From IMG/VR virus record IMGVR_UViG_2563366824_000008: a stretch of 41,432 bases of DNA; one strand, written 5' to 3'. Shown piece after piece: positions 3,099 to 37,540 of the stretch. Source of the stretch: a virus (Duplodnaviria > Heunggongvirae > Uroviricota > Caudoviricetes). The notes under the pieces were generated by a model, which ran no database searches, was not told the DNA's origin, and saw nothing but the letters and a program-made list of their open reading frames with translations. Position numbers and translations under genes: made by a program. Positions within the stretch are counted from its first letter, which is position 1; every line of letters begins with the position of its first letter.

Positions 3099-3453
3099 TT
3101 ATATGCATAACGACCTCCTGAATAGTAAAGCATTATGCATAATAAACCATTTATGGTTTTTTGTTACCCCTACATTGTCATTTCTATATCTTTCACACCA
3201 GAAAAAGATCTCACTATCACGACTTGTTAAGCCTATTGCCATGCCAGAACATTTCAATCCACAGGCATTCTAACTGGATGTGTTCACTCGCAATAAATTA
3301 CTTACAACAGACTATCGAACAGTAAATAAATATTCATGCAAGAATGAGAAAAGCGCCTGCACAGGCATATCACAAATAACATTATTTTTTACTACATCAT
3401 AAAAAATCGCGTTGTAATTTTGTATGTATTTCGTTATTGGTAATTATTTTATA

Positions 3454-3494
3454 ATCCAATAAAACAGGGAGGATTACTAATAATCTCCTCCCTG
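3454..3494 (-). terminator. rho-independent terminator after the tailspike gene
   Basis: On the minus strand: CAGGGAGGA ... TCCTCCCTG stem followed by TTTTATTGG; 21 nt downstream of the tailspike stop. Confidence 0.5.
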
Positions 3495-3514
3495 CATCCA
3501 TATAATAAAATATA

Positions 3515-6415
3515 TTAATTAGTTATTTTTCCTTCCAATTCTTCAATCCTCTTTATAATATTTTTCTGACGTATACCTAATGCAGCAATCATTAGATACT
3601 GTAATTCATCATTTCTGAATGCATAGCGTTCTCCTGCTTCATGCGTAATAGTTATAGCCTCACGAACAAGGTTACCTTCATCATCATAAACAGCAGGATC
3701 TGTATCTGCATATGCATCCCATCTGTCATAGCAGATCGCTCCGTATTTAAATGGATCAAGTCCATTCTCTCTGAATATTTCCATTGCCCGTTGCACCGTA
3801 AGTCCGGCATGAAGTCTGGCATCAGCTCCCTTATTTTTTACACTATCAAGCCATTGATAAAAACCAATTTCATCAACAAGAGCTAACCCAACAGCCTGCT
3901 CTTTATCGGAAAGAGTTCTGACTTCCGTTTTCTCTGTTGCATCAGATGTATTTATAGTTGCAGTCCCTGCGTAGACCTGAGAAAAGCGGTTAACGGACCT
4001 TCCAAGTGATACCTGGTTATCAGTTGTTGGCCTTAATGTCGTCGTCGCCCATGTCGATGTAGTATCTTTAGTCGCAGAAAATACTGTTACATTCCCCTGC
4101 TTAAGTCTGACGACACCTCCATCTGTAGAGGCAAGTATCAACTCACCAGCCGCAGATGGACAATCAGCAGCATGGATATCAATATAAGCACCACCTGCAG
4201 TATTCCCATCTTTAGAACGGAACTGCATACCTCGAAAGTTTGAGTCGAATACTGCTTTCGTACTTACCCATGAATTATTGTCATGTCCGTAATCTGTATC
4301 AAACAGGTTAAGGTTATTTCCATAATTCAACTCGAGGGATTTGGTATACTCTCCAATGGCTTCGTCAAATATCGCAATAGTAAATGAACCGTGCTCACGG
4401 TTAAAGGCGATATCAGTTCCAGCATAATATTGATGCGCGGTTCCGGTATACGGATCGGATTCTGCGCCATGCACTGGATGGTTGCCAAGAATATCAGACA
4501 GGTTTGCTACTCCAAACAGATGCTTATTTCTGCGAGTATAATCGCCTGATTTATATGTTGCACCTGAATCCCATTCACCATTTGTCGCTGCAAGCGATGT
4601 TTTTAACCAATAAGACCTGTTTGTCGGAAGATTTCCCTTGTTATCACCAGTAACAGTACTTACCCAATTTTTGCCACGATGACTTACAACATCCCCTGCG
4701 CTTTTCCATACATCCATAGCACCACAGACAAGTTCATCACCTCTTATTGCCAGCCCTTCAGGCTCAAAGCTAACCGGAACTCCGATTTTAGAGTCAGAAC
4801 CATTTAACTGAGTCTCTGTATAAAGTGATGCGGCAAGTGATACAGGAAACGAACGTATTAGCGTACCACCCATATCATAAATCTGGACTGTCCTTACGCA
4901 TCTTGCAGGAACGCCACCCCAAATTGTGTAAATATATCTGCTATCTGATGTAATACCCTGAAGTGTTGCACCATACTGACCTTTACCACGAACAAGTGGA
5001 ACAGGACCATTAATCGGTCTAACTTTCATTGGGCTAGAAGAAGATTCCACTTCTTTGCGATCATATACATATAAAAATCGGCCAGTCCCAGTGTTTGATG
5101 TCGCAATTAATATGACATATCGCCCATCATTAGATACACAAATACTTGCCCGCTGCGCAAGGTTAATCAGATTATTATCACCAGGCTCACCAAATACTCG
5201 GTAATGAGTTATATCTTCAGCAGATGTTGATGCCCCTTTCCATTTTGTCTTTGAATACCCCTTCCCTCCTAGAGAGGAACCAGTCTCAGCAATTGTTGTT
5301 GTAAACAGATATAGTTCACCGTTCTCTATTGTGGCAGAAAGATCTGACCCGTGACCAAGAGGCAATGGCTCTGTAAATGTCACAACAGAAAGAGTTGAAC
5401 CATCGCTTGTATAGTGCCACTCACTGATCCTTGTGAGGGTGTCCGTTCCCCAGTTAGAACCTCCAACCTGTTGAGTGATAAAAACCTTCTCAATACCTTC
5501 ATGCCTTACACAAGCTATTCCCTGCAATGCGTTTTGTGCATTCGCATATATAGTTGGCGCATTGATATCATCACCAAAATTCAGGGTCGCAAGTTTTCTT
5601 TGTCCAATGGAGAAACTTTGCATCGGCGGATTAACGGAAATGCGAACACCATTACTGATTAGAACACCATCACCGGAGAAGCGTGAAATATCTATTTTCG
5701 ATGCATCAACTATATATTCCCCTGCAGGAACATGAACAATTTTAGAGTTTAACTGTGCATTTATAAAAGCATTTGTATCATCATTAATTAAGTCTGCTTT
5801 TGCCCCAAAATCCTTTACGCTATAAACGTCACGCATCTTATCCTGGAACGTTCGGTATACTGCTCCAGAACCATACTGAATAAACCATCCGAAACCACCG
5901 ACAACACCAGCAATTGCAGCATCCACATACTTACGCATTGAGCGATTATTTACAGCATCCTGCTCAAATGATGGATCTGCAAGGTTAGAAATTTTGTTTT
6001 GCTTTGCATCGTAATATTTTGCAAGCAAAGATGGTTTCATCAATGCACGTCTGAACCACCCAAAACATTGCTGGATCAGCATCGTCAGGTAGTCAAAGGC
6101 ATCTTCATGCACTTCGGGGAAAAATTTTCCCTGATTGCGAAGGTCTGTCTCCTGCACTACATCAAGCACACGATCTATCGTAATTCGCCATCCAGCAGCA
6201 AGCGGCGACGGAAGAACCACAGAACCGCCACTATAAGTGCCCGCCCCAGTTACCGTATAACCGGTATCCAGAACCAATTCTGTTACGTTCCCGTTCAGGT
6301 CAGACACCTGAACAACCAGGTCTGATTTTTTGAAAATACGGAAGGTATACGGAAACGATGTCGTAACGCCGTTACCGGTGTATTCGTTGTGGTCAACTTC
6401 GGTTGAGACCGTCAT
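3515..6415 (-). CDS. tailspike/tail fiber with beta-helix depolymerase-like body and C-terminal intramolecular chaperone domain
   Basis: 966 aa; N-terminal virion-attachment region; VKDFGAKADLINDDTNAF pectate-lyase-like beta-helix start; C-terminal segment (TLSDKEQAVGLALVDEIGFYQW...) resembles the self-cleaving S74 chaperone of tailspikes. Confidence 0.8.
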   Translation of the reverse strand: MTVSTEVDHNEYTGNGVTTSFPYTFRIFKKSDLVVQVSDLNGNVTELVLDTGYTVTGAGTYSGGSVVLPSPLAAGWRITIDRVLDVVQETDLRNQGKFFPEVHEDAFDYLTMLIQQCFGWFRRALMKPSLLAKYYDAKQNKISNLADPSFEQDAVNNRSMRKYVDAAIAGVVGGFGWFIQYGSGAVYRTFQDKMRDVYSVKDFGAKADLINDDTNAFINAQLNSKIVHVPAGEYIVDASKIDISRFSGDGVLISNGVRISVNPPMQSFSIGQRKLATLNFGDDINAPTIYANAQNALQGIACVRHEGIEKVFITQQVGGSNWGTDTLTRISEWHYTSDGSTLSVVTFTEPLPLGHGSDLSATIENGELYLFTTTIAETGSSLGGKGYSKTKWKGASTSAEDITHYRVFGEPGDNNLINLAQRASICVSNDGRYVILIATSNTGTGRFLYVYDRKEVESSSSPMKVRPINGPVPLVRGKGQYGATLQGITSDSRYIYTIWGGVPARCVRTVQIYDMGGTLIRSFPVSLAASLYTETQLNGSDSKIGVPVSFEPEGLAIRGDELVCGAMDVWKSAGDVVSHRGKNWVSTVTGDNKGNLPTNRSYWLKTSLAATNGEWDSGATYKSGDYTRRNKHLFGVANLSDILGNHPVHGAESDPYTGTAHQYYAGTDIAFNREHGSFTIAIFDEAIGEYTKSLELNYGNNLNLFDTDYGHDNNSWVSTKAVFDSNFRGMQFRSKDGNTAGGAYIDIHAADCPSAAGELILASTDGGVVRLKQGNVTVFSATKDTTSTWATTTLRPTTDNQVSLGRSVNRFSQVYAGTATINTSDATEKTEVRTLSDKEQAVGLALVDEIGFYQWLDSVKNKGADARLHAGLTVQRAMEIFRENGLDPFKYGAICYDRWDAYADTDPAVYDDEGNLVREAITITHEAGERYAFRNDELQYLMIAALGIRQKNIIKRIEELEGKITN

Positions 6416-6519: not shown

Positions 6520-6534
6520 TTACCTTTCGGGTAA
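6520..6534. promoter_or_regulatory. candidate repressor operator TTACCTTTCGGGTAA
   Basis: Perfect copy of the recurrent TTACCT-N4-GGTAA inverted repeat, 77 nt upstream of the 6611 start. Confidence 0.5.
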
Positions 6535-6571: not shown

Positions 6572-6591
6572 TACTGTATAAATATACAGTT
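6572..6591. promoter_or_regulatory. LexA (SOS) box overlapping a -10-like element
   Basis: TACTGTATAAATATACAGTT matches the CTGT-N8-ACAG LexA consensus with an AT-rich spacer; overlaps TGTATAAAT; 20 nt upstream of the ATG at 6611. Confidence 0.7.
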
Positions 6592-6610: not shown

Positions 6611-6868
6611 ATGCAGCAGTATCACTATCCACTGGAAGACGGATTTACCGAAAGGATTCACACGCCGGGAGGCGTCAGGTCACTGGTGGAGGGATCGCAT
6701 TTGATGAAATTACTCCGGGATCTCGATAAGGATGGATTTAATGTCGATGGCCCACTTGCCGAACTGACTGCACTGATTAACTACGTCACCAGCTCACAGA
6801 TGTCTATGCGGGATCTGCAAACACATCTCGACTATTGTGCCGAACAATTACGAAAACAAACCAGATAA
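6611..6868 (+). CDS. small antirepressor-like protein, paralogous to the C-terminal domain of the adjacent Ant
   Basis: Start taken at the internal ATG 6611 (RBS GGAGAAG) of ORF 6488..6868; 85-aa product aligns by eye with the last ~70 aa of the 7184..7879 protein (shared positions include LM-LL, DG, AELT, RD-QTH-Y). Confidence 0.6.
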   Translation: MQQYHYPLEDGFTERIHTPGGVRSLVEGSHLMKLLRDLDKDGFNVDGPLAELTALINYVTSSQMSMRDLQTHLDYCAEQLRKQTR

Positions 6869-6899
6869 GATTTGAAATTACCAAGAGGAGTGCTTATAT

Positions 6900-6914
6900 T
6901 TACCTTTGCGGTAA
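6900..6914. promoter_or_regulatory. candidate repressor operator TTACCTTTGCGGTAA inside a 12-bp inverted repeat
   Basis: Perfect motif copy lying in the loop between CAAGAGGAGTGC (6883..6894) and GCACTCCTCTTG (6924..6935). Confidence 0.45.
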
Positions 6915-7006
6915 ATTTACATCGCACTCCTCTTGTGCCATAGTAATCGGGCACTGGCAAAATCCAGTGCCGGGATTGGCGTCCCGGATTACTAAAAGGC
7001 GTATTC

Positions 7007-7026
7007 ACCGCGCAAGCGGTTTTTTT
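7007..7026 (+). terminator. rho-independent terminator (GNRA-loop hairpin plus T-run)
   Basis: ACCGC-GCAA-GCGGT followed by TTTTTT; about 140 nt after the 6611..6868 stop. Confidence 0.5.
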
Positions 7027-7183
7027 ATGCGTATAGCACGGCCACATTCGTATTATGGTGGGCTGTGTGGGGGCACCGAAAGGTGCGCCGGGTCCTTTTA
7101 GCCGGTTACGCCAACCCTGCACAGTTCACCACCAACCGATTGGCGTCGGTAGTGGTGATTAACCAGACTAAAAGGTAACCACT

Positions 7184-7879
7184 ATGACAGCTACAAAAAG
7201 CACGTCCATTTTTTCTTTCGAATCCCAAGCCGATATACGAGTAATCGTCATTAATGGTGAGCCATGGTTTATCGCTTCAGATGTTTGTCGGGCTATAGGC
7301 ATAGCAAATCATCGAGATGCTGTTAGAAAACTTGATGATGATGAGAAGGGCGTCGCTTCAACCGACACCCCTGGCGGTGAGCAAGAATCGATCATCATCT
7401 CCGAGTCAGGCCTCTACACACTGATCCTCCGCTGCCGCGACGCAGTGACACCAGGCACTATCCCCTACCGCTTTCGTAAATGGGTTACAGGTGAGGTTCT
7501 TCCTCAGATCCGCCGCACCGGAAGTTACATTAAAAACTCGCTCCCGCAGGAAGAACGCATAAAGATAGTTGCCGACCAGGTAGCCAACGCCACAGCATCA
7601 GCAGTGATGCAGGCAATGAAGATAGAGAACAAAACCTACAGTGCCCCACTGAAGCCCGGCTACCGCAGCCTGATTCACTCGCCGTCGGGTGTTCTCGGCC
7701 TGACGGAGAACTCACTGCTGATGAATCTGCTGAACCAGTTGCAGGACGACGGGCACGACGTATCGGGCGCGGCGGCGGAGCTGACCACCATGTTCTGCTA
7801 CATCGTCGGTGTGAGCAAATGCCTGCGTGATATCCAGACCCACGCGGAGTACATCAACGACAAAGCAGGGTTCTTCTGA
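7184..7879 (+). CDS. ant: antirepressor with BRO-N (KilA-N-like) N-terminal domain
   Basis: 231 aa; N-terminal region (VIVINGEPWFIASDVCRAIG...) matches the BRO-N/antirepressor signature as remembered; RBS AAAAGGTAA; C-terminal domain paralogous to the 6611 product. Confidence 0.75.
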   Translation: MTATKSTSIFSFESQADIRVIVINGEPWFIASDVCRAIGIANHRDAVRKLDDDEKGVASTDTPGGEQESIIISESGLYTLILRCRDAVTPGTIPYRFRKWVTGEVLPQIRRTGSYIKNSLPQEERIKIVADQVANATASAVMQAMKIENKTYSAPLKPGYRSLIHSPSGVLGLTENSLLMNLLNQLQDDGHDVSGAAAELTTMFCYIVGVSKCLRDIQTHAEYINDKAGFF

Positions 7880-7949: not shown

Positions 7950-7964
7950 TTACCTCAAGGGTAA
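7950..7964. promoter_or_regulatory. candidate repressor operator TTACCTCAAGGGTAA
   Basis: Perfect motif copy 60 nt upstream of the 8025 start. Confidence 0.45.
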
Positions 7965-8024: not shown

Positions 8025-8204
8025 ATGCGAAACGAAAAATTGCAGATGCGTAGAGCGCAAGCTGCCGCAAGACGTTCTTTCAATGGAAGCGTAGAGTACG
8101 TAAAAGTTACTATGACAAAAGATCACGCAAGTCGCGTATCCCGCGCTTTCTTTGATTCTCGTAACAATAAGGAAAATTATGAGTTCGTCTGCGTCGCAGA
8201 ATGA
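8025..8204 (+). CDS. small basic protein (candidate antitoxin), not in the ORF track
   Basis: 59-aa ORF translated by hand; RBS GAGGT 6 nt upstream of the ATG; overlaps the next gene by 26 nt in another frame. Confidence 0.4.
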   Translation: MRNEKLQMRRAQAAARRSFNGSVEYVKVTMTKDHASRVSRAFFDSRNNKENYEFVCVAE

Positions 8205-8724
8205 TAAAAATCAAATTGTCAGATATAAGGGTCGAGTATTGCATACGCAAAATTTCTCGGCCCTTTGTGCATCTGATCTTGAGCTGAAGAAAGTATCTGA
8301 TGCCTTTGCCCAGTATTGGAAAACGGGATACCATCCATCTCTTGGTAAAGATGCTGCATTTGCTCGTCCGACAGAAATGCTTAAACTAAATGTCAGGCAT
8401 ACTCATGTCGATAACCAAGACTATATTCCAGAAGATAGTGATAAAAAACACACTGGTAAAAAATCATCTTGGGATGCATGGAAAAATATAGCGTCTGTAC
8501 AAGTAAAATGCATACCAACAAGTGATTGCTTTTTAGTTTATTCGGTAAATCACAATCGTGATGCGCTGGTTATGTTTTTTGTTGACGCAGATGCTCACAA
8601 CATAACTGAGCAAGAAGAGTTTAAAGAGGAAGCAATCACTATCAGTTATCAATTCTTTGAGAAAACAAAAACAGAACCAATGCCTTTAGAAGAAGATCTT
8701 TTTTCTGATAAATGGAAGGAATAG
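8179..8724 (+). CDS. candidate toxin, possibly YafO-like
   Basis: Start taken at ATG 8179 (RBS AAGGAAAA) within ORF 8152..8724; 181 aa; segments DAF-QYWKTG..P.LGKDAAF, HTHVD and CFLVYS resemble my recollection of the YafO ribosome-dependent mRNA interferase family; not verified. Confidence 0.4.
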   Translation: MSSSASQNDKNQIVRYKGRVLHTQNFSALCASDLELKKVSDAFAQYWKTGYHPSLGKDAAFARPTEMLKLNVRHTHVDNQDYIPEDSDKKHTGKKSSWDAWKNIASVQVKCIPTSDCFLVYSVNHNRDALVMFFVDADAHNITEQEEFKEEAITISYQFFEKTKTEPMPLEEDLFSDKWKE

Positions 8725-25510: not shown

Positions 25511-25525
25511 TTACCTTTCAGGTAA
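25511..25525. promoter_or_regulatory. candidate repressor operator TTACCTTTCAGGTAA with adjacent TTGACA
   Basis: Perfect motif copy; TTGACA at 25489..25494 immediately upstream; 320 nt before the tRNA. Confidence 0.45.
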
Positions 25526-25847: not shown

Positions 25848-25924
25848 GTGGCATTAGCTCAGTTGGACAGAGCAACCGCCTTCTAAGCGGTTGGTCGCAG
25901 GTTCGAATCCTGCATGCCACGCCA
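25848..25924 (+). tRNA. tRNA-Arg, anticodon UCU (argU-like)
   Basis: 77-nt cloverleaf folded by hand: acceptor GTGGCAT/ATGCCAC, D arm GCTC/GAGC, anticodon stem ACCGC/GCGGT with loop CTTCTAA, T arm GCAGG-TTCGAAT-CCTGC, discriminator G, encoded CCA. Confidence 0.9.
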
Positions 25925-28060: not shown

Positions 28061-28653
28061 TGATTACCATCCTGACGTTCTTTGAGTCGCTTCCTGGCTG
28101 CTGCTATGCGATCAGCAATTGTCACATTCACATTAACATCCAGACGTTCTTTGAACGCGTTGACATCAACATGCTTACCAATCAGTTCTAGGTTCTTCAC
28201 CTTGTCAGGCCATTTAATTTTTTTGAGGATTGTCTCTATCGAATCCTCGTTCATGTTCATGATGGTCGATGACAGATCAAAGCCACTAAGCGTAGTGCGC
28301 CAGATTTTCGGCCACTCACGGATTGGTTTAAGGCTCCCATCGTCGTTGAGGATATCGATCACGTCCATCTGGTCGATCTCCACCAGGCGCATGAGAACGT
28401 AATCAGCACTGACGCGCATTCGTTTGTTGCGCTCCTCCATCAACTCGGCAATCCGTTTTTGAATGCGTTCATCGCGCATCATGACACTGGCTTTAACTGC
28501 CGCTGTATTTGGGGAAAATCCTGCGTTAATCGCTGCCTGAGTCTGGTTTTCAGGCGTTTTGATGTATGACTGGCAATAAGCCTCCTGCATTGCTGTTAGT
28601 GGCTTAAATTGCGTTGATTTGCGTTTATAGGTTTTAGGTTCAGCAGGCATCAT
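28057..28653 (-). CDS. terS: terminase small subunit
   Basis: Start set at internal ATG-ATG with GGTGG RBS (ORF 28057..28731); DNA-binding N-terminal region; directly upstream of terL. Confidence 0.65.
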   Translation of the reverse strand: MMPAEPKTYKRKSTQFKPLTAMQEAYCQSYIKTPENQTQAAINAGFSPNTAAVKASVMMRDERIQKRIAELMEERNKRMRVSADYVLMRLVEIDQMDVIDILNDDGSLKPIREWPKIWRTTLSGFDLSSTIMNMNEDSIETILKKIKWPDKVKNLELIGKHVDVNAFKERLDVNVNVTIADRIAAARKRLKERQDGNQ

Positions 28654-28763
28654 AACCACCGTGGTAATAGTTACCGTTGTGGTAATAGTACCATGCAAAA
28701 TAAAGCCGCCATAGTTGGCGGCAGTATTCAAAACCCATCAAATTCATCATGCATAATCTACTC

Positions 28764-31985: not shown

Positions 31986-32062
31986 TTACCTCTAAGGTAA
32001 TTAAAAACCACATAAGACACGAAATCAATAGAGTTTAGAATATTTTGTTACCTTATAGGTAA
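31986..32062. promoter_or_regulatory. two candidate repressor operators between P-like and downstream genes
   Basis: TTACCTCTAAGGTAA (31986..32000) and TTACCTTATAGGTAA (32048..32062). Confidence 0.5.
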
Positions 32063-33712: not shown

Positions 33713-33949
33713 TCAGCTTGAATGTTGTGGGGAGGAATTAATCATGATCTGCTTAATCTCTGCCCTGATACGACGGTTTGATTCCATGGTGCACTCAACA
33801 CAGTGTCCGTTGTAAACCCAGCGTTCACTGTCATGTCCGTGCTTACATGGTTTTCCGGTGTAGTAGCGTTTAAGTCCGCGCTTTGCGGCATCAATACGTG
33901 TAATGATTTCCATGGTAAGCCCTGTTATTAGTATTGGGATTACGGTCAT
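33713..33949 (-). CDS. small zinc-ribbon protein
   Basis: ORF 33713..34003 trimmed to an internal Met because the annotated start overlaps an operator-like site; CKHGH...CVEC cysteine/histidine cluster; exact start uncertain. Confidence 0.4.
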   Translation of the reverse strand: MTVIPILITGLTMEIITRIDAAKRGLKRYYTGKPCKHGHDSERWVYNGHCVECTMESNRRIRAEIKQIMINSSPQHSS

Positions 33950-34014
33950 TTTGTGCTGACACAAAAAAAAGATCAACCACATTTGGTTTTTTATTACCCT
34001 CAAGGTGCGAATAG

Positions 34015-34063: not shown

Positions 34064-34294
34064 TCATGAGTAGAAGAAGTATGCCAGTTCTGCTTTTGAG
34101 CGCAGCCATTGTCTTGATTTACAGGCTTTAAAAAGCCCATTCATCAATACCTTACCTGGCATTTTGCGCTTACCTGTTAAGTGAGTCTGGATATAGTGAC
34201 TCGTCGTTCCGGCTTCCTGTGCGAAGGCTTCACGCTCATCCGGAGTAAGTGCAAGCCAGTGCTTTTTGAAATCGAAATGTCCGTTATCGCTCAT
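34064..34294 (-). CDS. Cro/cII-like helix-turn-helix regulator
   Basis: 76 aa; HTH-like segment QEAGTTSHYIQTHLTGKR; first gene of the leftward early operon, divergent from the repressor. Confidence 0.55.
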   Translation of the reverse strand: MSDNGHFDFKKHWLALTPDEREAFAQEAGTTSHYIQTHLTGKRKMPGKVLMNGLFKACKSRQWLRSKAELAYFFYS

Positions 34295-34330
34295 AGCTAT
34301 TGCCTGATATTTATTTCAGATAATAAATAT

Positions 34331-34393
34331 TCACCTATAAGGTAACAAAAATCAAGAATAGTTACCCATGAGGTGCATTTACCTGTTGGGTAA
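34331..34393. promoter_or_regulatory. immunity-region operator cluster (three sites) with divergent promoters
   Basis: TCACCTATAAGGTAA (34331..34345), TTACCCATGAGGTGC (34362..34376), TTACCTGTTGGGTAA (34379..34393) in the 154-bp gap between divergent regulator genes. Confidence 0.6.
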
Positions 34394-34448
34394 TATTGCT
34401 TTAAATTGAATCATCTTCTGATTCAGATATGAGGCGATTTTCCAGAAA

Positions 34449-35033
34449 ATGAAAAGTATCCAGGACGTCCGCAGGCAAAATCTCAACGACTTGATCGACC
34501 GTGAATTCAATGGTGTTCAGACGCGGATGGCAGAAAAACTTGGAACTCAGGCAAATCTGGTAAACCGCTGGGCTCTTGGCAAGAAGGTTATCGGCGACCA
34601 GGTTGCGCGAAAAATTGAAGCTGCCGCCAATAAACCCCGTAACTGGCTTGATATCGATCGCTCGCTTTCTCAGGAAGGTTTTCAGCCTGTCGGCCCAAGC
34701 GACATTGGTCAGCTGGCGGCTCACAACCTGGAACGCTGGATGAGCGAAAGCCGCGACCTTTCAACACAGGGAAAACTTCACCGCGCATCCGGCGTCGCCC
34801 AGGTGACAATCAGCCGCCTGTTAAACAATGAGGTCAGCGTTTCCATTTCCACCCTGGAGAATGTTGCATCCGCATTCGGGCGTCACGGCTATGAATTACT
34901 GATTCACCCGCACGACCCTGCGACTATCAACTATGACCGCTCGCGCTACGCATTGTTACCCGAAACAGAGAAGGCAAAGATCGAAAGTTACATTGAATTT
35001 GTCATCAGCCAGAACGAAAAAAACAAACAATAA
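34449..35033 (+). CDS. prophage repressor candidate with two HTH domains and no autocleavage domain
   Basis: 194 aa; two XRE-like HTH segments (QTRMAEKLGTQANLVNRW and HRASGVAQVTISRLLNN); no LexA-like Ala-Gly / Ser-Lys cleavage module seen; followed by its own terminator. Confidence 0.6.
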   Translation: MKSIQDVRRQNLNDLIDREFNGVQTRMAEKLGTQANLVNRWALGKKVIGDQVARKIEAAANKPRNWLDIDRSLSQEGFQPVGPSDIGQLAAHNLERWMSESRDLSTQGKLHRASGVAQVTISRLLNNEVSVSISTLENVASAFGRHGYELLIHPHDPATINYDRSRYALLPETEKAKIESYIEFVISQNEKNKQ

Positions 35034-35053
35034 AATCATATTTTTCAGTAAGT

Positions 35054-35078
35054 AAGCCGCCTCATGGCGGCTTTTTTA
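35054..35078 (+). terminator. rho-independent terminator after the repressor gene
   Basis: AAGCCGCC-tcat-GGCGGCTT followed by TTTTATT. Confidence 0.65.
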
Positions 35079-35090
35079 TTGCCAGCAAGA

Positions 35091-35167
35091 TTACCTTATG
35101 GGTAATTTTTTTAACTCATATCTATTGACATCAAACCAGATACGCATAATCATTACCTCAACGGTAA
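35091..35167 (+). promoter_or_regulatory. rightward early promoter flanked by two operators (oL/pL analogue)
   Basis: TTACCTTATGGGTAA (35091..35105), TTGACA (35125..35130), CATAAT (35145..35150), TTACCTCAACGGTAA (35153..35167). Confidence 0.55.
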
Positions 35168-35186
35168 CAGACCGAGGTAACAAATT

Positions 35187-35339
35187 ATGCAGTGGAAAAT
35201 CATCAACGGTTGGTACTGCGTTACTGCATGCGGATTCATGAGCTGGAAGTTCCGCACCTTACAGGAAGGCATTAAGTGGGCTTTCGTCAGCAAAGAAGCT
35301 CGCGATGTGGCCAACGATAACGAGATATGGGAGGGCTGA
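35187..35339 (+). CDS. small hypothetical protein, not in the ORF track
   Basis: 50-aa ORF translated by hand; RBS GAGGT 7 nt upstream; first gene after the rightward promoter. Confidence 0.4.
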   Translation: MQWKIINGWYCVTACGFMSWKFRTLQEGIKWAFVSKEARDVANDNEIWEG

Positions 35340-35341
35340 TA

Positions 35342-35641
35342 ATGAACGTTAATCAGCAGAAAAATCTTCAAAAAATCATGCTGGCATTCGACAAGGACTA
35401 CCGCCTGTCAGAACAGATATATGACCGACAAGTTGAACTGATTGAGAGCATCCGACTTCATCAACTGTCCTCAACTTTCGACGTTGTAACAGGCAAAGGC
35501 GTTCGCCAGGAAGTACTGGAGGCTGCTAAAGACAGCCCTGAGTTCGAAGAACTGATGGATGCCTATCGGCGAGAGGCAATGGCAATTATCGCCCGCTGGG
35601 ATCTGGCGGATCAGCTTGATGGACAGAGGGACGCGGCATGA
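35342..35641 (+). CDS. hypothetical early protein
   Basis: Start set at ATG 35342 with RBS GGGAGGG (ORF 35327..35641); 99 aa. Confidence 0.5.
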   Translation: MNVNQQKNLQKIMLAFDKDYRLSEQIYDRQVELIESIRLHQLSSTFDVVTGKGVRQEVLEAAKDSPEFEELMDAYRREAMAIIARWDLADQLDGQRDAA

Positions 35642-35844
35642 AACCAACACTCCTCTCATTGCTGCGAGGTGGAAAACACAGCATCAGAGATATGGCAAAG
35701 ATTCTTGGTATCTCAAGATCGAAGGTTTCTTGGTTCATCGCTGAGCTTGAACGTCGCAAATGGGTAGAGGTAACCAGGAGCGCAATATATTTCCACGATG
35801 GAACCCGTTCCAACAAGCAGAACGAATACAAGGTTAAGTTATGA
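35638..35844 (+). CDS. small winged-helix DNA-binding protein
   Basis: 68 aa; HTH-like segment IRDMAKILGISRSKVSWFIAELE; ATGA overlap with the upstream gene. Confidence 0.5.
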   Translation: MKPTLLSLLRGGKHSIRDMAKILGISRSKVSWFIAELERRKWVEVTRSAIYFHDGTRSNKQNEYKVKL

Positions 35845-36662
35845 ATACTGGCATCTATTTCGACATCAGCAATGAGGACTACCACGCCGGTGACGGCGTG
35901 AGTAAGTCGCAACTGGACATGGTTGCCAAGAATCCGGCGCTTCTTAAATGGGTTCAGGCAGCACCAGAAGACGAAGAGAAAAAGTCTGCACTAGATATGG
36001 GAACTGCATTGCACTGTCTGCTTCTGGAACCTGGAGAATTCGACAAACGCTTCATTGTTTCACCAAAGTTCGATCGTCGGACGAAACAAGGTAAAGCTGA
36101 CGAAGAAGCATTTCTTCGTGATGTAGCGGATATGGGGATTGCGGTACTTGATGCCGAGCAGTGGCGGAAACTGGAGCTGATGCGTGATAGCGCAATGGCT
36201 CACCCGGCGGCACGCTGGATGCTGGAAGCACCTGGTTACTGCGAAGCATCAATGTACTGGAACGATGAAGAGACTGGTGAGTTGTGCCGCATTCGTCCAG
36301 ACAAATGGCTGAACGAGCACAACGTGATCGTCGACGTGAAAAAGGTTGCAGATATGGACCGTTTTGCACGCCACATCGAGGAATTCCGCTACCACGTGCA
36401 GGACGCAATGTACCGCGAAGGCGCAATGAAGGTTACTGGTCAGCCGCATGGTTTTTTCTTTCTTGCCGTGAGCGAAAGCATTGATTGTGGTCGGTATCCG
36501 GTACGCGTGTTCGAGCTGGATGCGCCGGATGTCGATGCCGGGCACGCTCTGTTCCGCCGGGATCTGAATACCTATCACGAATGCCGCATCAACGATGAGT
36601 GGGGCGGAGTGGAAATTATTAAACGCCCTGACTGGGCACGTAAACAGGATATGTACGTATGA
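35841..36662 (+). CDS. recombination exonuclease, PD-(D/E)XK-type
   Basis: 273 aa; D..(D/E)xK-like motif around VIVDVKK; immediately upstream of and coupled to the annealing-protein gene. Confidence 0.55.
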   Translation: MNTGIYFDISNEDYHAGDGVSKSQLDMVAKNPALLKWVQAAPEDEEKKSALDMGTALHCLLLEPGEFDKRFIVSPKFDRRTKQGKADEEAFLRDVADMGIAVLDAEQWRKLELMRDSAMAHPAARWMLEAPGYCEASMYWNDEETGELCRIRPDKWLNEHNVIVDVKKVADMDRFARHIEEFRYHVQDAMYREGAMKVTGQPHGFFFLAVSESIDCGRYPVRVFELDAPDVDAGHALFRRDLNTYHECRINDEWGGVEIIKRPDWARKQDMYV

Positions 36663-37540
36663 GCAATGATATCGCAATCACATCACAACCAGGCGCAACT
36701 GTAGGTACTGCTGCGGCAATCTTCAGCCCGGAGGGCATGAATCAACTGGTGCGTTTCGCGGAGTTGATGTCACAAAGCAAAGCGACTGTACCGAAACATC
36801 TTGAAGGCAAACCTGCCGATTGTCTGGCGGTGACCATGCAGGCGGCACAGTGGGGAATGAATCCTTTCGCCGTGGCGCAGAAAACGCATGTGGTAAACGG
36901 AACGTTAGGCTACGAAGCACAGTTGGTAAACGCGGTCGTATCCTCTTCCAGCCTGCTAGCGACACGCCTGAATTATCGCTGGAGCGGTGACTGGTCGAAT
37001 GTTAACGGCAAAACAGATAAATCACCGAATCTGACGGTAACTGTGTCAGCAGTTCTTAAAGGAGAAGCAGAACCCCGTGAGCTTACCATCAGTATGGCGC
37101 AAGCCGGAGTGCGTAACTCTCCATTGTGGGAACAGGATCCGCGCCAGCAACTTGCCTATCTTTGCACGAAACGATGGGCTCGCTTGCACGCTCCTGATGT
37201 ACTTCTCGGTGTTTACACCCCTGACGAATTACAGGAAACGGCACCGCGCGTTGAGCGAGACATTACTCCGCAAACGACCACTGCTGCGGGAATGAACAGT
37301 CTGATCAACGCTAAACAAGTGAAAAAGCCTGATGAGCAAACGCGTAAAGCGGATAGCCGTGATCCAGAAGAAATGCTAATGGCCTTTACCAGCGCAGCGA
37401 TGAATTACAGCACTGTCTCCGAACTGGATAAAGCTTACAAATACATTGCACAAAAACTTTCAGATGATGACGAACTGCTCGCAAAAGCCACCGACGTTTA
37501 CAGCGTTCGTCGGGAAGAATTAAACGAAACATCTATGTAA
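36659..37540 (+). CDS. single-strand annealing protein, lambda Bet (Red-beta)-like
   Basis: 293 aa; ERDITP and SPLWEQDPRQQLAYLCTKRWARL segments resemble Bet as I recall it; paired with the exonuclease. Confidence 0.6.
   Translation: MSNDIAITSQPGATVGTAAAIFSPEGMNQLVRFAELMSQSKATVPKHLEGKPADCLAVTMQAAQWGMNPFAVAQKTHVVNGTLGYEAQLVNAVVSSSSLLATRLNYRWSGDWSNVNGKTDKSPNLTVTVSAVLKGEAEPRELTISMAQAGVRNSPLWEQDPRQQLAYLCTKRWARLHAPDVLLGVYTPDELQETAPRVERDITPQTTTAAGMNSLINAKQVKKPDEQTRKADSRDPEEMLMAFTSAAMNYSTVSELDKAYKYIAQKLSDDDELLAKATDVYSVRREELNETSM

Follow-up and report, generated by a model that had tools for sequence, protein, structure and literature searches.

A probable Rep-Ant type immunity switch and its operator motif in a phiV10-like prophage of Escherichia coli

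Which type of lysogeny switch is encoded where two regulator genes diverge from a short gap with repeated palindromes, and how far does the motif found there reach over the phage genome? We addressed this question in a stretch of 41,432 nt (hereafter the window) from a virus of the Caudoviricetes (IMGVR_UViG_2563366824_000008). At this locus the window and phiV10 share about 98% identity, and the region is carried by 561 of 5426 complete E. coli genomes. The locus is very probably the lysogeny-control region (an immC-type switch) of a phiV10/epsilon15-like (Uetakevirus) E. coli prophage (Table 1). With equally high confidence, and by analogy, we assign its mode of action to the Rep-Ant type characterised in Salmonella phage SPC32H, which works with a non-cleavable repressor. 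The SPC32H lytic switch is said to have been described by Kim and Ryu in J Virol in 2013 and by Kim et al. in PNAS in 2016 (PDB 5D50, 5D4Z). The interpretation as an immunity region is supported, and the Rep-Ant immunity switch is already known and not new. The region is ordinary, since the same system has been structurally solved in this sister phage.

Table 1. Positions of genes, RNAs, terminators, putative promoters and candidate operators in the window
Feature	Position	Strand	Description
Exact operator	6520..6534		Tailspike/ant divergent region; conserved in SPC32H
LexA box	6572..6591	+	TACTGTATAAATATACAGTT; only one in window
ant	6611..6868	+	85-aa antirepressor; PDB 5D50_E, E=1.4e-46; PHROG_450
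Second antirepressor module	6900..7879	+	Operator, putative promoter, isrK, C4, Bro-N antirepressor
Exact operator of this module	6900-6914
Putative promoter of this module	6916-6944		TTTACA-17-CATAGT
isrK RNA	6951-7026		Rfam 77.4 bits, gathering score 50
C4 antisense RNA	7051-7136		Rfam 77.7 bits, gathering score 45
Bro-N antirepressor	7184-7879
Exact operator	7950..7964		Upstream of 59-aa ORF 8025-8204 and YafO-like ORF 8152-8724
Exact operator	25511..25525		Upstream of portal/head operon (minus strand)
Two adjacent operators	28653..28685		28653 (1 mismatch), 28671 (exact)
Second paired-operator module	31986..32062	-	Exact sites 31986 and 32048, 62 bp apart
Variant operator	33994-34008		TTACCCTCAAGGTGC; GGTGC variant; upstream of 66-aa ORF 33713-33913
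Terminator after cro-like gene	34042-34023	-
cro-like gene	34064..34294	-	76-aa HTH regulator (phiV10 p41); first gene of leftward replication operon
Divergent gap	34295-34448		154 bp between ORF 34064-34294 (-) and ORF 34449-35033 (+)
O-left	34331..34345		TCACCTATAAGGTAA; 1 mismatch; within spacer/-10 of leftward (cro-like) candidate promoter
O-mid	34362..34376		TTACCCATGAGGTGC; 2 mismatches; GGTGC variant half-site
O-right	34379..34393		TTACCTGTTGGGTAA; exact; overlaps invariant TAATAT (34391-34396)
rep	34449..35033	+	194-aa repressor; homologue of SPC32H Rep
Intrinsic terminator of rep	35054..35079	+	Stem 35054-35073 and T-run
Early-left promoter module	35091..35167	+	Putative sigma-70-like promoter bracketed by two exact operators
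Parts of this module			Distal operator 35091-35105; -35 TTGACA 35125-35130; -10 AATCAT 35148-35153; proximal operator 35153-35167
Recombination operon	35187..37540	+	Small ORFs, 68-aa winged-HTH protein, exonuclease, RecT
PD-(D/E)XK exonuclease	35841-36662	+
RecT	36659-37540	+

The rep product is 99.5% identical to phiV10 p40 and a full-length homologue of SPC32H Rep (PDB 5D50_A, E=4.1e-42, aa 1-190, phmmer against PDB). A Foldseek search with its model likewise gave 5D50 and 5D4Z as best matches. In the AF2 model two separate helical HTH-type domains are found at aa 4-59 and 83-151. The N-terminal one is modelled as a 4-helix HTH. Within it, aa 21-61 show a Cro-like HTH match to YdaS_toxin (21 bits, below the cut-off of 30), and the domain matches residues 2-74 of the 5D50 Rep chain (E=2e-18), the part described as DNA-binding domain (PMC9986798). 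The second domain is recognised by Pfam HTH_3 at aa 106-147 (E=1.2e-9, 38.5 bits against a cut-off of 23). SPC32H Rep has been divided into an N-terminal HTH DNA-binding domain, a middle dimerisation domain of HTH fold (MDD) and a C-terminal TetDloop/CAD part for tetramerisation and Ant binding. Two XRE-type HTH domains had been proposed in the initial annotation; two HTH-fold domains are indeed present, but by homology the second is a dimerisation domain and not a DNA reader (PMC9986798 for both).

Conservation differs between these domains. In four aligned Reps of 42-78% identity the N-terminal recognition helix N36-L-V-N-R-W41 is invariant, as are F184 and further C-terminal residues, and in a family alignment of 31 sequences N36, R40 and W41 are invariant and L37 is nearly so. 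Helix 3 of the middle domain is only 23-62% identical among the aligned Reps. Since the recognition helix shows no variation, its link to the operator motif is one of co-conservation and not of covariation. A model in which one monomer reads both half-sites with its two HTHs was rejected: the recognition helices differ (NLVNRW and VTISRLL) and only the first is conserved.

Lambda CI and LexA-like repressors have a Ser-Lys dyad in a C-terminal S24 domain and are cleaved at an Ala-Gly site. Rep had been predicted to be without such a cleavage module, and this was confirmed: Pfam and the PDB fold matches gave no S24 peptidase, and neither an Ala-Gly nor a Cys-Gly dipeptide occurs in the Rep sequence. 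From rep through the terminator, the early-left promoter and the divergent cro-like gene to the O/P-like replication genes, the order is that of a lambdoid phage and would suit a lambda-type switch whose repressor is inactivated by RecA-stimulated autocleavage. However, beside the missing domain and dipeptides, Rep is homologous over its full length to a repressor known as uncleaved, and a LexA-controlled Ant is present. Autocleavage is therefore extremely improbable and effectively already refuted. Where the secondary literature touches on SPC32H Rep, it reports that Rep binds palindromic sites as a tetramer, that Ant disassembles this tetramer and that Rep is not cleaved.

On the other side of the gap, the 76-aa Cro-like protein matches PHROG_35 'transcriptional repressor' (E=8.7e-13), in agreement with the earlier reading of an immunity region with divergent regulators. 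It is 59-86% identical across four lineages, with AGTTSHYIQ.HLT invariant. Its single-sequence AF2 model is a five-helix bundle (pLDDT 82), for which the nearest folds are DNA-binding domains of the Cro/YdaS/434 type (YdaS-N, 434 repressor; TM about 0.6) with non-significant E-values. The family profile found one marginal match among PDB sequences (E=0.42). With these profile and fold matches marginal or non-significant, the Cro-like assignment rests on PHROG_35 and the gene position.

The gap between both genes had been said to hold three copies of one motif. All three were recovered as copies of TTACC-N5-GGTAA, one exact, one with a single and one with two mismatches. A shuffle control gave 10.7 matches with up to two mismatches per 41.4 kb, i.e. 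about 0.04 expected in 154 bp, so that three copies are far beyond chance. The three operators keep their positions in four other lineages; their centre-to-centre spacing is 31 and 17 bp, and this layout (30/31 and 17 bp) is kept in the relatives. One half-site of O-left is imperfect in every lineage compared. Beside it, AAAAATCAA is invariant, and its reverse complement TTGATT is a -35 candidate (34350-34355); a promoter scan proposed TTGTTA-17-TATTAT (34348-34320) as an alternative leftward promoter. For rep, we infer that the TAATAT at O-right is the best candidate for a -10, and a consensus search of the gap returned no rep promoter with a consensus or acceptable -35.

Operators of the lambda OR type are evenly spaced (about 23-24 bp) and occupied by dimers with pairwise cooperativity. 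An arrangement like oR1-3 had been suggested for the gap, and both systems have three operators in the space that separates the divergent repressor and cro genes. The likeness is topological only, as the spacings are 31 and 17 bp here against 24 and 23 bp in lambda and the homologue of Rep binds as a tetramer.

The GGTGC half-site of O-mid is shared by Tyrion and a Serratia prophage, and an exact GGTAA stands in its place in SPC32H and BUCT711. This variant is found at 33994 as well as at the O-mid of three lineages; together with the bona fide HTH_3 match of the middle domain, this could mean that both HTHs of Rep read DNA and that the middle domain recognises a second half-site type, e.g. 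GGTGC, with dual specificity as the result. We give this little credence: GGTGC is replaced in two lineages, helix 3 is poorly conserved although the motif is invariant, and the middle domain is described as a dimerisation domain in the SPC32H homologue (PMC9986798).

Outside the gap, the motif marks the majority of the phage's transcription units. Ten exact copies were found in the window, all of them intergenic, against 0.12 expected from the half-site frequencies (Poisson P=1.4e-16). No other spacer length from 0 to 11 between the half-sites was enriched. In SPC32H the same motif is the top palindrome; Tyrion, BUCT711 and a Serratia prophage show an enrichment of it at sites in synteny. Across four related lineages, with Reps of only 42-78% identity, the operators occupy syntenic positions. 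Among the late genes, the operator at 25511 has syntenic counterparts in SPC32H (3175), Tyrion (3969) and BUCT711 (34570), and the pair 28653/28671, flanked by a terminator (28722-28705, minus strand) on one side and the start of the small terminase gene on the other, in SPC32H (12) and Tyrion (67, 85). No convincing sigma-70 promoter was found at these late-gene operators (25511 and 28653/28671). The region upstream of the lysis genes (3099-3514) contains no good operator; SPC32H and Tyrion each have a site with one mismatch there. A full-text literature search for the half-site strings in the context of phage repressors gave nothing relevant.

Two units show a common geometry. Behind rep, a strong terminator and then a second operator-promoter unit for the recombination operon had been expected. 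The terminator folds with -21.1 kcal/mol (z=-5.25) and is also annotated as a terminator in phiV10, and the putative exonuclease/RecT promoter is indeed accompanied by two operators, 62 bp apart from centre to centre. Both operators and CTATTGAC are conserved in Tyrion, BUCT711 and SPC32H with a spacing of 62-63 bp. Pfam matches within the recombination operon are DUF3799, RecT and MarR_2/HTH_24. The pair 31986/32048 lies between a lambda-P-like replication gene and a DUF1064 gene, and its 62-bp arrangement occurs in SPC32H, Tyrion and BUCT711 as well. The promoter assignments are putative, and looping or bridging between paired sites may occur.

Judging from sequence comparison, Rep and probably also the Cro-like protein would bind exactly TTACC-N5-GGTAA. 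In the lineages sharing the motif, conservation is higher for the Cro-like protein (59-86%) than for Rep (42-78%), and the HTH of the Cro-like protein is invariant, as might be expected if the motif were the site of this protein, or of another phage regulator, only and Rep recognised another sequence. But the sites are those that a prophage repressor, and not a lytic-phase Cro, has to occupy, namely at the ant promoter, the two early promoters and late genes. In addition, there is no second enriched palindrome in the window or in SPC32H, the recognition helix of the Rep N-terminal domain is invariant, and the secondary literature places Rep on palindromic sites. We thus consider binding by the Cro-like protein alone quite unlikely and retain Rep as reader of the motif; on the same sequence grounds some of the sites could be read mainly by the better conserved Cro-like protein.

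The release from repression had been ascribed to an antirepressor, and this is supported by the first of two modules and by work on phage ZX5. Ant is 87% identical to SPC32H Ant, and its gene stands behind a LexA box, 28 kb from rep; no such box is expected by chance, and it is aligned and conserved with that of SPC32H. Any plausible ant -35 would be found about 45 bp downstream of the operator at 6520, which could therefore act on the divergent tailspike gene instead. In the second module, the C-terminal 74 aa of the Bro-N antirepressor are 43% identical to Ant, and the isrK/C4/Bro-N arrangement is conserved in Tyrion. An 11-bp inverted repeat on either side of the operator at 6900 was rejected as a structured element; Tyrion does not share it, and it is therefore probably incidental. 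In phage ZX5, whose repressor is reported to be identical to that of phiV10, overexpression of a Bro-N antirepressor promoted the lytic cycle, and overexpression of the repressor cut the lysis-gene transcripts by >99.9% (PMC9782041).

From these elements a mechanism can be proposed. The N-terminal HTH of Rep would read the 15-17-bp palindrome (A)TTACC-N5-GGTAA(T). With the middle domain dimerising and the C-terminal domain tetramerising, one Rep tetramer would present two DNA-reading pairs. O-left would cover the core of the leftward cro-like/replication promoter, and O-mid and O-right would overlap the stretch that must contain the rep promoter, so that occupancy of the gap would repress lytic transcription and autoregulate rep. 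The rep transcript would end at its own terminator, and the recombination and post-replication operons would each have a promoter between operators 62 bp apart. Single or double operators are further assigned to the ant promoter, the isrK/C4/Bro-N promoter, a moron, the portal operon and the terminase gene; as operators sit at these units, Rep would directly silence nearly every transcription unit. During the SOS response, LexA cleavage would free the LexA box over the ant promoter, the repressor itself staying uncleaved. Ant would then bind the C-terminal part of Rep, break the tetramer and take Rep off the DNA. With about 14 conserved operators at most units and two promoters caged by 62-bp pairs, Rep could tentatively be seen as a genome-wide silencer instead of a two-locus repressor, a view we hold as possible but doubtful.

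The system can be compared with several known ones. SPC32H belongs to the same genus. Besides a Rep homologous over its full length and a closely similar Ant, it has a LexA box in front of ant, the same motif, three sites in the divergent region and paired modules of 62 bp. However, its Rep is only 42% identical (N-terminal domain 53%, middle 32%, C-terminal 43%), O-mid is a GGTGC variant here, and SPC32H is without the second, RNA-controlled Bro-N antirepressor and its operator, both of which this phage has. With lambda it has in common a terminator behind the repressor gene, a separately repressed early-left recombination operon and replication genes to the right. Unlike lambda, it has no S24 autocleavage domain and would be induced by an antirepressor, Rep would by analogy form a tetramer with trans-paired DNA-binding domains, and operators are also placed at late and accessory genes. 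Multiple repressor sites over the whole genome are known from the 'stoperators' of mycobacteriophages L5/L1, and the scattering of a single motif is common to both. The sites described here are palindromes at or near promoters and without exception intergenic, whereas those of L5/L1 are asymmetric and inside transcription units; multiple asymmetric operators of the L5/L1 repressor are described in PMC1934351.

LexA-controlled antirepressors are found in coliphage 186 (Tum), Gifsy-1/3 and Fels-2 (Lemire et al. 2011, PMC3121763; reviewed in PMC7380047). The proposed order of SOS, LexA cleavage, antirepressor and non-covalent inactivation of a non-cleavable repressor is the same, but the proteins are probably of other families, Ant being assigned here to PHROG_450 and matching 5D50_E. 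As in the P1/P7 immI region (c4 antisense RNA-ant) and the Gifsy-1 IsrK locus, isrK and C4 genes lie directly upstream of an antirepressor gene; in contrast to them, the module predicted here is under a putative Rep operator and accompanied by a small LexA-controlled Ant. The pLS20 Rco and p53-type TetDloop tetramers likewise combine an N-terminal DNA-binding domain with a C-terminal tetramerisation domain and can thereby bridge two distant sites (PMC9986798), but Rep has an extra middle dimerisation domain and its looping is putative.

For annotation, phiV10-type prophages (about 10% of complete E. coli genomes) can be placed in the SPC32H Rep-Ant class, i.e. as probably SOS-inducible yet non-cleavable. 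Operator and recognition helix are invariant among Reps down to 42% identity, and Ant stays 87% identical. If Rep is a genome-wide silencer, immunity would not be differentiated at the level of DNA recognition in these prophages, and Ant could induce them across lineages. From the operator map, cross-immunity and cross-induction between Uetakevirus prophages are conceivable. Since phiV10 and SPC32H serve as reporter phages, their control sites are of some practical value. The useful extra of the present analysis is the operator map, which provides a list of sites and leads to the prediction that late and accessory genes are repressed directly. Its spacings of 17, 31 and 62 bp hint at geometric rules, which can be compared with the known tetramer structure. 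As a side observation, the 31 bp between O-left and O-mid (about 105 Å) match the roughly 100 Å between the domain pairs in the Rep tetramer.

The region under study, which comprises the gap between the two divergent ORFs, the 194-aa ORF and 150 bp beyond it, shares ~98% identity with Escherichia phage phiV10 and related phages, epsilon15-like podoviruses of the genus Uetakevirus; of 5426 complete E. coli genomes, 561 carry it. In the phiV10 record, terminators are marked and the repressor carries the label 'putative transcriptional repressor; two helix-turn-helix motifs'. Comparison with the PDB revealed a full-length match to Rep of Salmonella phage SPC32H (5D50_A, E=4.1e-42; 5D4Z comprises Rep 92-198). 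In the AF2 model of the repressor (pLDDT 78), a four-helix HTH (aa 4-59), a disordered linker, a five-helix HTH (aa 83-151) and a C-terminal helix are seen, and 5D50 and 5D4Z were the best structural matches, followed by XRE-family HTH proteins. Pfam assigns the middle domain to HTH_3 (E=1.2e-9); for the N-terminal domain there is only a sub-threshold Cro-like match. The two HTH domains and the lack of a cleavage module described in the initial annotation are thereby recovered, and the S24 peptidase fold, named there beforehand as contrary evidence, is absent from the structural matches. RecA-mediated autocleavage of Rep is effectively excluded, S24 being found neither by Pfam nor by fold search.

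According to secondary literature, including PMC9986798, DNA binding in SPC32H Rep resides in the N-terminal domain and dimerisation in the middle one, and the C-terminal domain ('CAD' or TetDloop) serves tetramerisation and binds Ant; on palindromic sites Rep is a tetramer, with N-terminal domains of different dimers making each DNA-reading pair, and it is inactivated when the tetrameric antirepressor Ant binds and breaks it. The phage ZX5 repressor was reported to be identical to that of phiV10; its overexpression left no free phage and lowered lysis-gene transcripts by >99.9%, and the lytic cycle of ZX5 is promoted by a Bro-N antirepressor (PMC9782041). At sequence level, the region belongs to the SPC32H Rep-Ant class, every tested defining feature being present. 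The initial reading is sound, though the system is already known: it is annotated in phiV10, its function has been tested in ZX5 with an identical repressor, and its structure is available from a sister phage. What may be absent from the accessible literature is the syntenic map of operators across the genome with its fixed 17/31/62-bp geometry, together with the operator invariance across diverged Reps.

Matches to the operator motif TTACC-N5-GGTAA with up to two mismatches occur 10.7 times per whole window in shuffled sequence, corresponding to ~0.04 in the 154-bp gap, where three were observed (O-left, O-mid and O-right, see table). These copies, the strong terminator after the repressor gene and the second operator-promoter unit ahead of the recombination operon lie as initially annotated. 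The suggested likeness to lambda oR1-3 holds for gene order and for three operators between divergent promoters; unlike lambda, this switch has no S24 domain and no evenly spaced, dimer-bound operators. For the exact palindrome ~0.12 copies were expected in the window and ten were found (P=1.4e-16), and all other spacer lengths from 0 to 11 gave one match in total. After discounting two spurious ORFs of the automatic map, all ten are intergenic; the two-mismatch matches lie mostly inside genes and look like background.

Operators and associated features in the window
Feature	Position	Strand	Remarks
Tailspike gene	3515-6415	-	
Exact operator	6520		tailspike/ant divergent region
LexA-box-like TACTGTATAAATATACAGTT	6572-6591		ahead of ant
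ant, 85 aa	6611-6868		5D50_E match, E=1.4e-46
Exact operator	6900		upstream of isrK
Promoter TTTACA-17-CATAGT	6916-6944		upstream of isrK
isrK sRNA	6951-7026		above Rfam gathering score
C4 antisense RNA	7051-7136		above Rfam gathering score
Bro-N protein	7184-7879		
Exact operator	7950		upstream of moron
59-aa ORF	8025-8204		PHROG_6685; overlaps 190-aa ORF (to 8724)
Exact operator	25511-25525		directly upstream of portal operon
tRNA-Arg (TCT)	25848-25924	+	
Operator pair	28653-28685		28671 exact, neighbour 1 mismatch; directly upstream of small-terminase start codon, just past terminator 28722-28705
Exact operators	31986, 32048		flank promoter between lambda-P-like replication gene and DUF1064 gene
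66-aa ORF	33713-33913		PHROG_1081, phiV10 p42; after cro terminator
Site with GGTGC half-site	33994-34008		after cro terminator
Cro-like ORF, 76 aa	34064-34294	-	left border of gap
O-left TCACCTATAAGGTAA	34331		1 mismatch
O-mid TTACCCATGAGGTGC	34362		2 mismatches
O-right TTACCTGTTGGGTAA	34379		exact
Repressor gene, 194 aa	34449-35033	+	
Terminator	35054-35079		GC-rich 8-bp hairpin + T-run; -21.1 kcal/mol, z=-5.25
Exact operator	35091		
TTGACA (consensus -35)	35125		-10 ending 35153
Exact operator	35153		then small ORFs, PD-(D/E)XK exonuclease, RecT
Winged-HTH protein, 68 aa	35638-35844		MarR/HTH_24-like; directly before exonuclease gene

In SPC32H, no palindrome is more over-represented than that of the operator, and it shows strong enrichment in phage Tyrion, Klebsiella phage BUCT711 and, around rep, a Serratia prophage. 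In ascending order, the Reps of these four lineages share 42% (SPC32H), 45%, ~53% and 78% identity with that of the window. Operator positions are syntenic, with three sites in every divergent gap, 30/31 and 17 bp apart; at the early-left and post-replication promoters, two operators spaced by 62-63 bp always enclose an invariant CTATTGAC. The symmetrised consensus of 25 exact sites from three genomes reads (A)TTACC-nnWnn-GGTAA(T). At O-mid, a GGTGC half-site replaces GGTAA in the window (34362-34376), Tyrion and the Serratia prophage; O-mid has a perfect GGTAA in SPC32H and BUCT711. The variant, which recurs after the cro terminator and is listed alongside L005 2922-2936, may be a deliberately weakened site. 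That the motif serves the Cro-like protein only is unlikely, because of the site locations and the lack of a second enriched palindrome. Judged from its sequence, this protein (59-86% identity across lineages, above that of Rep, with an invariant HTH) probably uses the same operators as Rep.

The N-terminal recognition helix of Rep, N36-L-V-N-R-W41, is invariant in the aligned Reps of the four lineages, and an alignment of 31 family members keeps N36, R40 and W41 without exception and L37 almost always. This supports a reading of TTACC by the N-terminal domain and fits the published roles of the domains; since all helices found were non-variant, the link is one of co-conservation and not of covariation. 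Recognition of DNA by the middle HTH domain is disfavoured, this domain being poorly conserved (just 23-62% identity in helix 3) and its role being given as dimerisation in PMC9986798.

O-left fills the spacer and -10 of the leftward promoter (candidate -35 TTGATT, its complement AAAAATCAA being invariant; the scan itself called TTGTTA-17-TATTAT), and Rep bound there would block transcription of the cro-like and replication genes. O-mid and O-right overlap TAATAT, the sole conserved -10-like hexamer upstream of rep and a candidate placement of its promoter, which suggests autoregulation. In the paired modules the proximal operator overlaps the predicted -10 and transcription start, with its distal partner ~62 bp upstream, and the promoter could be caged by one tetramer or by two interacting tetramers. 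The 31 bp between O-left and O-mid correspond to ~105 Å, near the ~100 Å given in PMC9986798 as the distance separating the two pairs of middle domains in a Rep tetramer, and we infer a geometric link.

Antirepressor-driven induction, as initially proposed, is supported because the window holds a concrete ant gene, 28 kb from the immunity region and 87% identical to SPC32H Ant, behind an SOS box, the sole LexA-box-like sequence in the window, where none is expected by chance. The ant control region including operator 6520 aligns throughout with its SPC32H counterpart. In SPC32H, LexA reportedly represses ant and Rep stays uncleaved, as Kim and Ryu are said to have found in 2013. Counted upstream from the inferred start site of ant, the operator is ~62 bp away, an offset shared with the distal operators of the paired modules, and where these have a proximal operator there is the LexA box; by its position, the operator may just as well act on the divergent tailspike gene. 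DNA damage would lead to LexA cleavage and Ant synthesis, and Ant, acting on the C-terminal region of Rep, would disassemble the tetramer and release it from all operators. Ant is 87% identical to its SPC32H homologue, yet its target Rep only 42% (C-terminal domain 43%), which suggests that Ant touches few invariant Rep residues. From these sequences, heterologous Uetakevirus prophages could be targets of Ant in trans.

A second antirepressor module (6900-7879) has isrK, C4 RNA and a Bro-N protein in a layout like that of P1 immI or the Gifsy-1 IsrK-antirepressor locus, and the C-terminal 74 aa of the Bro-N protein are 43% identical to the small Ant. The module is kept in Tyrion and missing from SPC32H. 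An 11-bp inverted repeat (AAGAGGAGTGC / GCACTCCTCTT) around operator 6900 (6884-6935) is probably incidental, since it is not conserved in Tyrion.

The ORFs downstream of operator 7950, of which the 190-aa ORF gave a marginal YafO-toxin Pfam match (26.1 bits, cut-off 25), may be a toxin-like moron controlled by Rep. No sigma-70 promoter is recognisable at the portal and small-terminase operators, and a roadblock or an activator-dependent promoter are possibilities for Rep there. The tRNA-Arg near the head-gene operator is syntenic with the annotated tRNA-Arg of SPC32H. In the recombination operon, the winged-HTH protein may be an extra regulator or an excisionase-like factor. The 66-aa ORF, with a Cys/His pattern C-x2-H...C-x2-C, occupies the place corresponding to cII in lambda.
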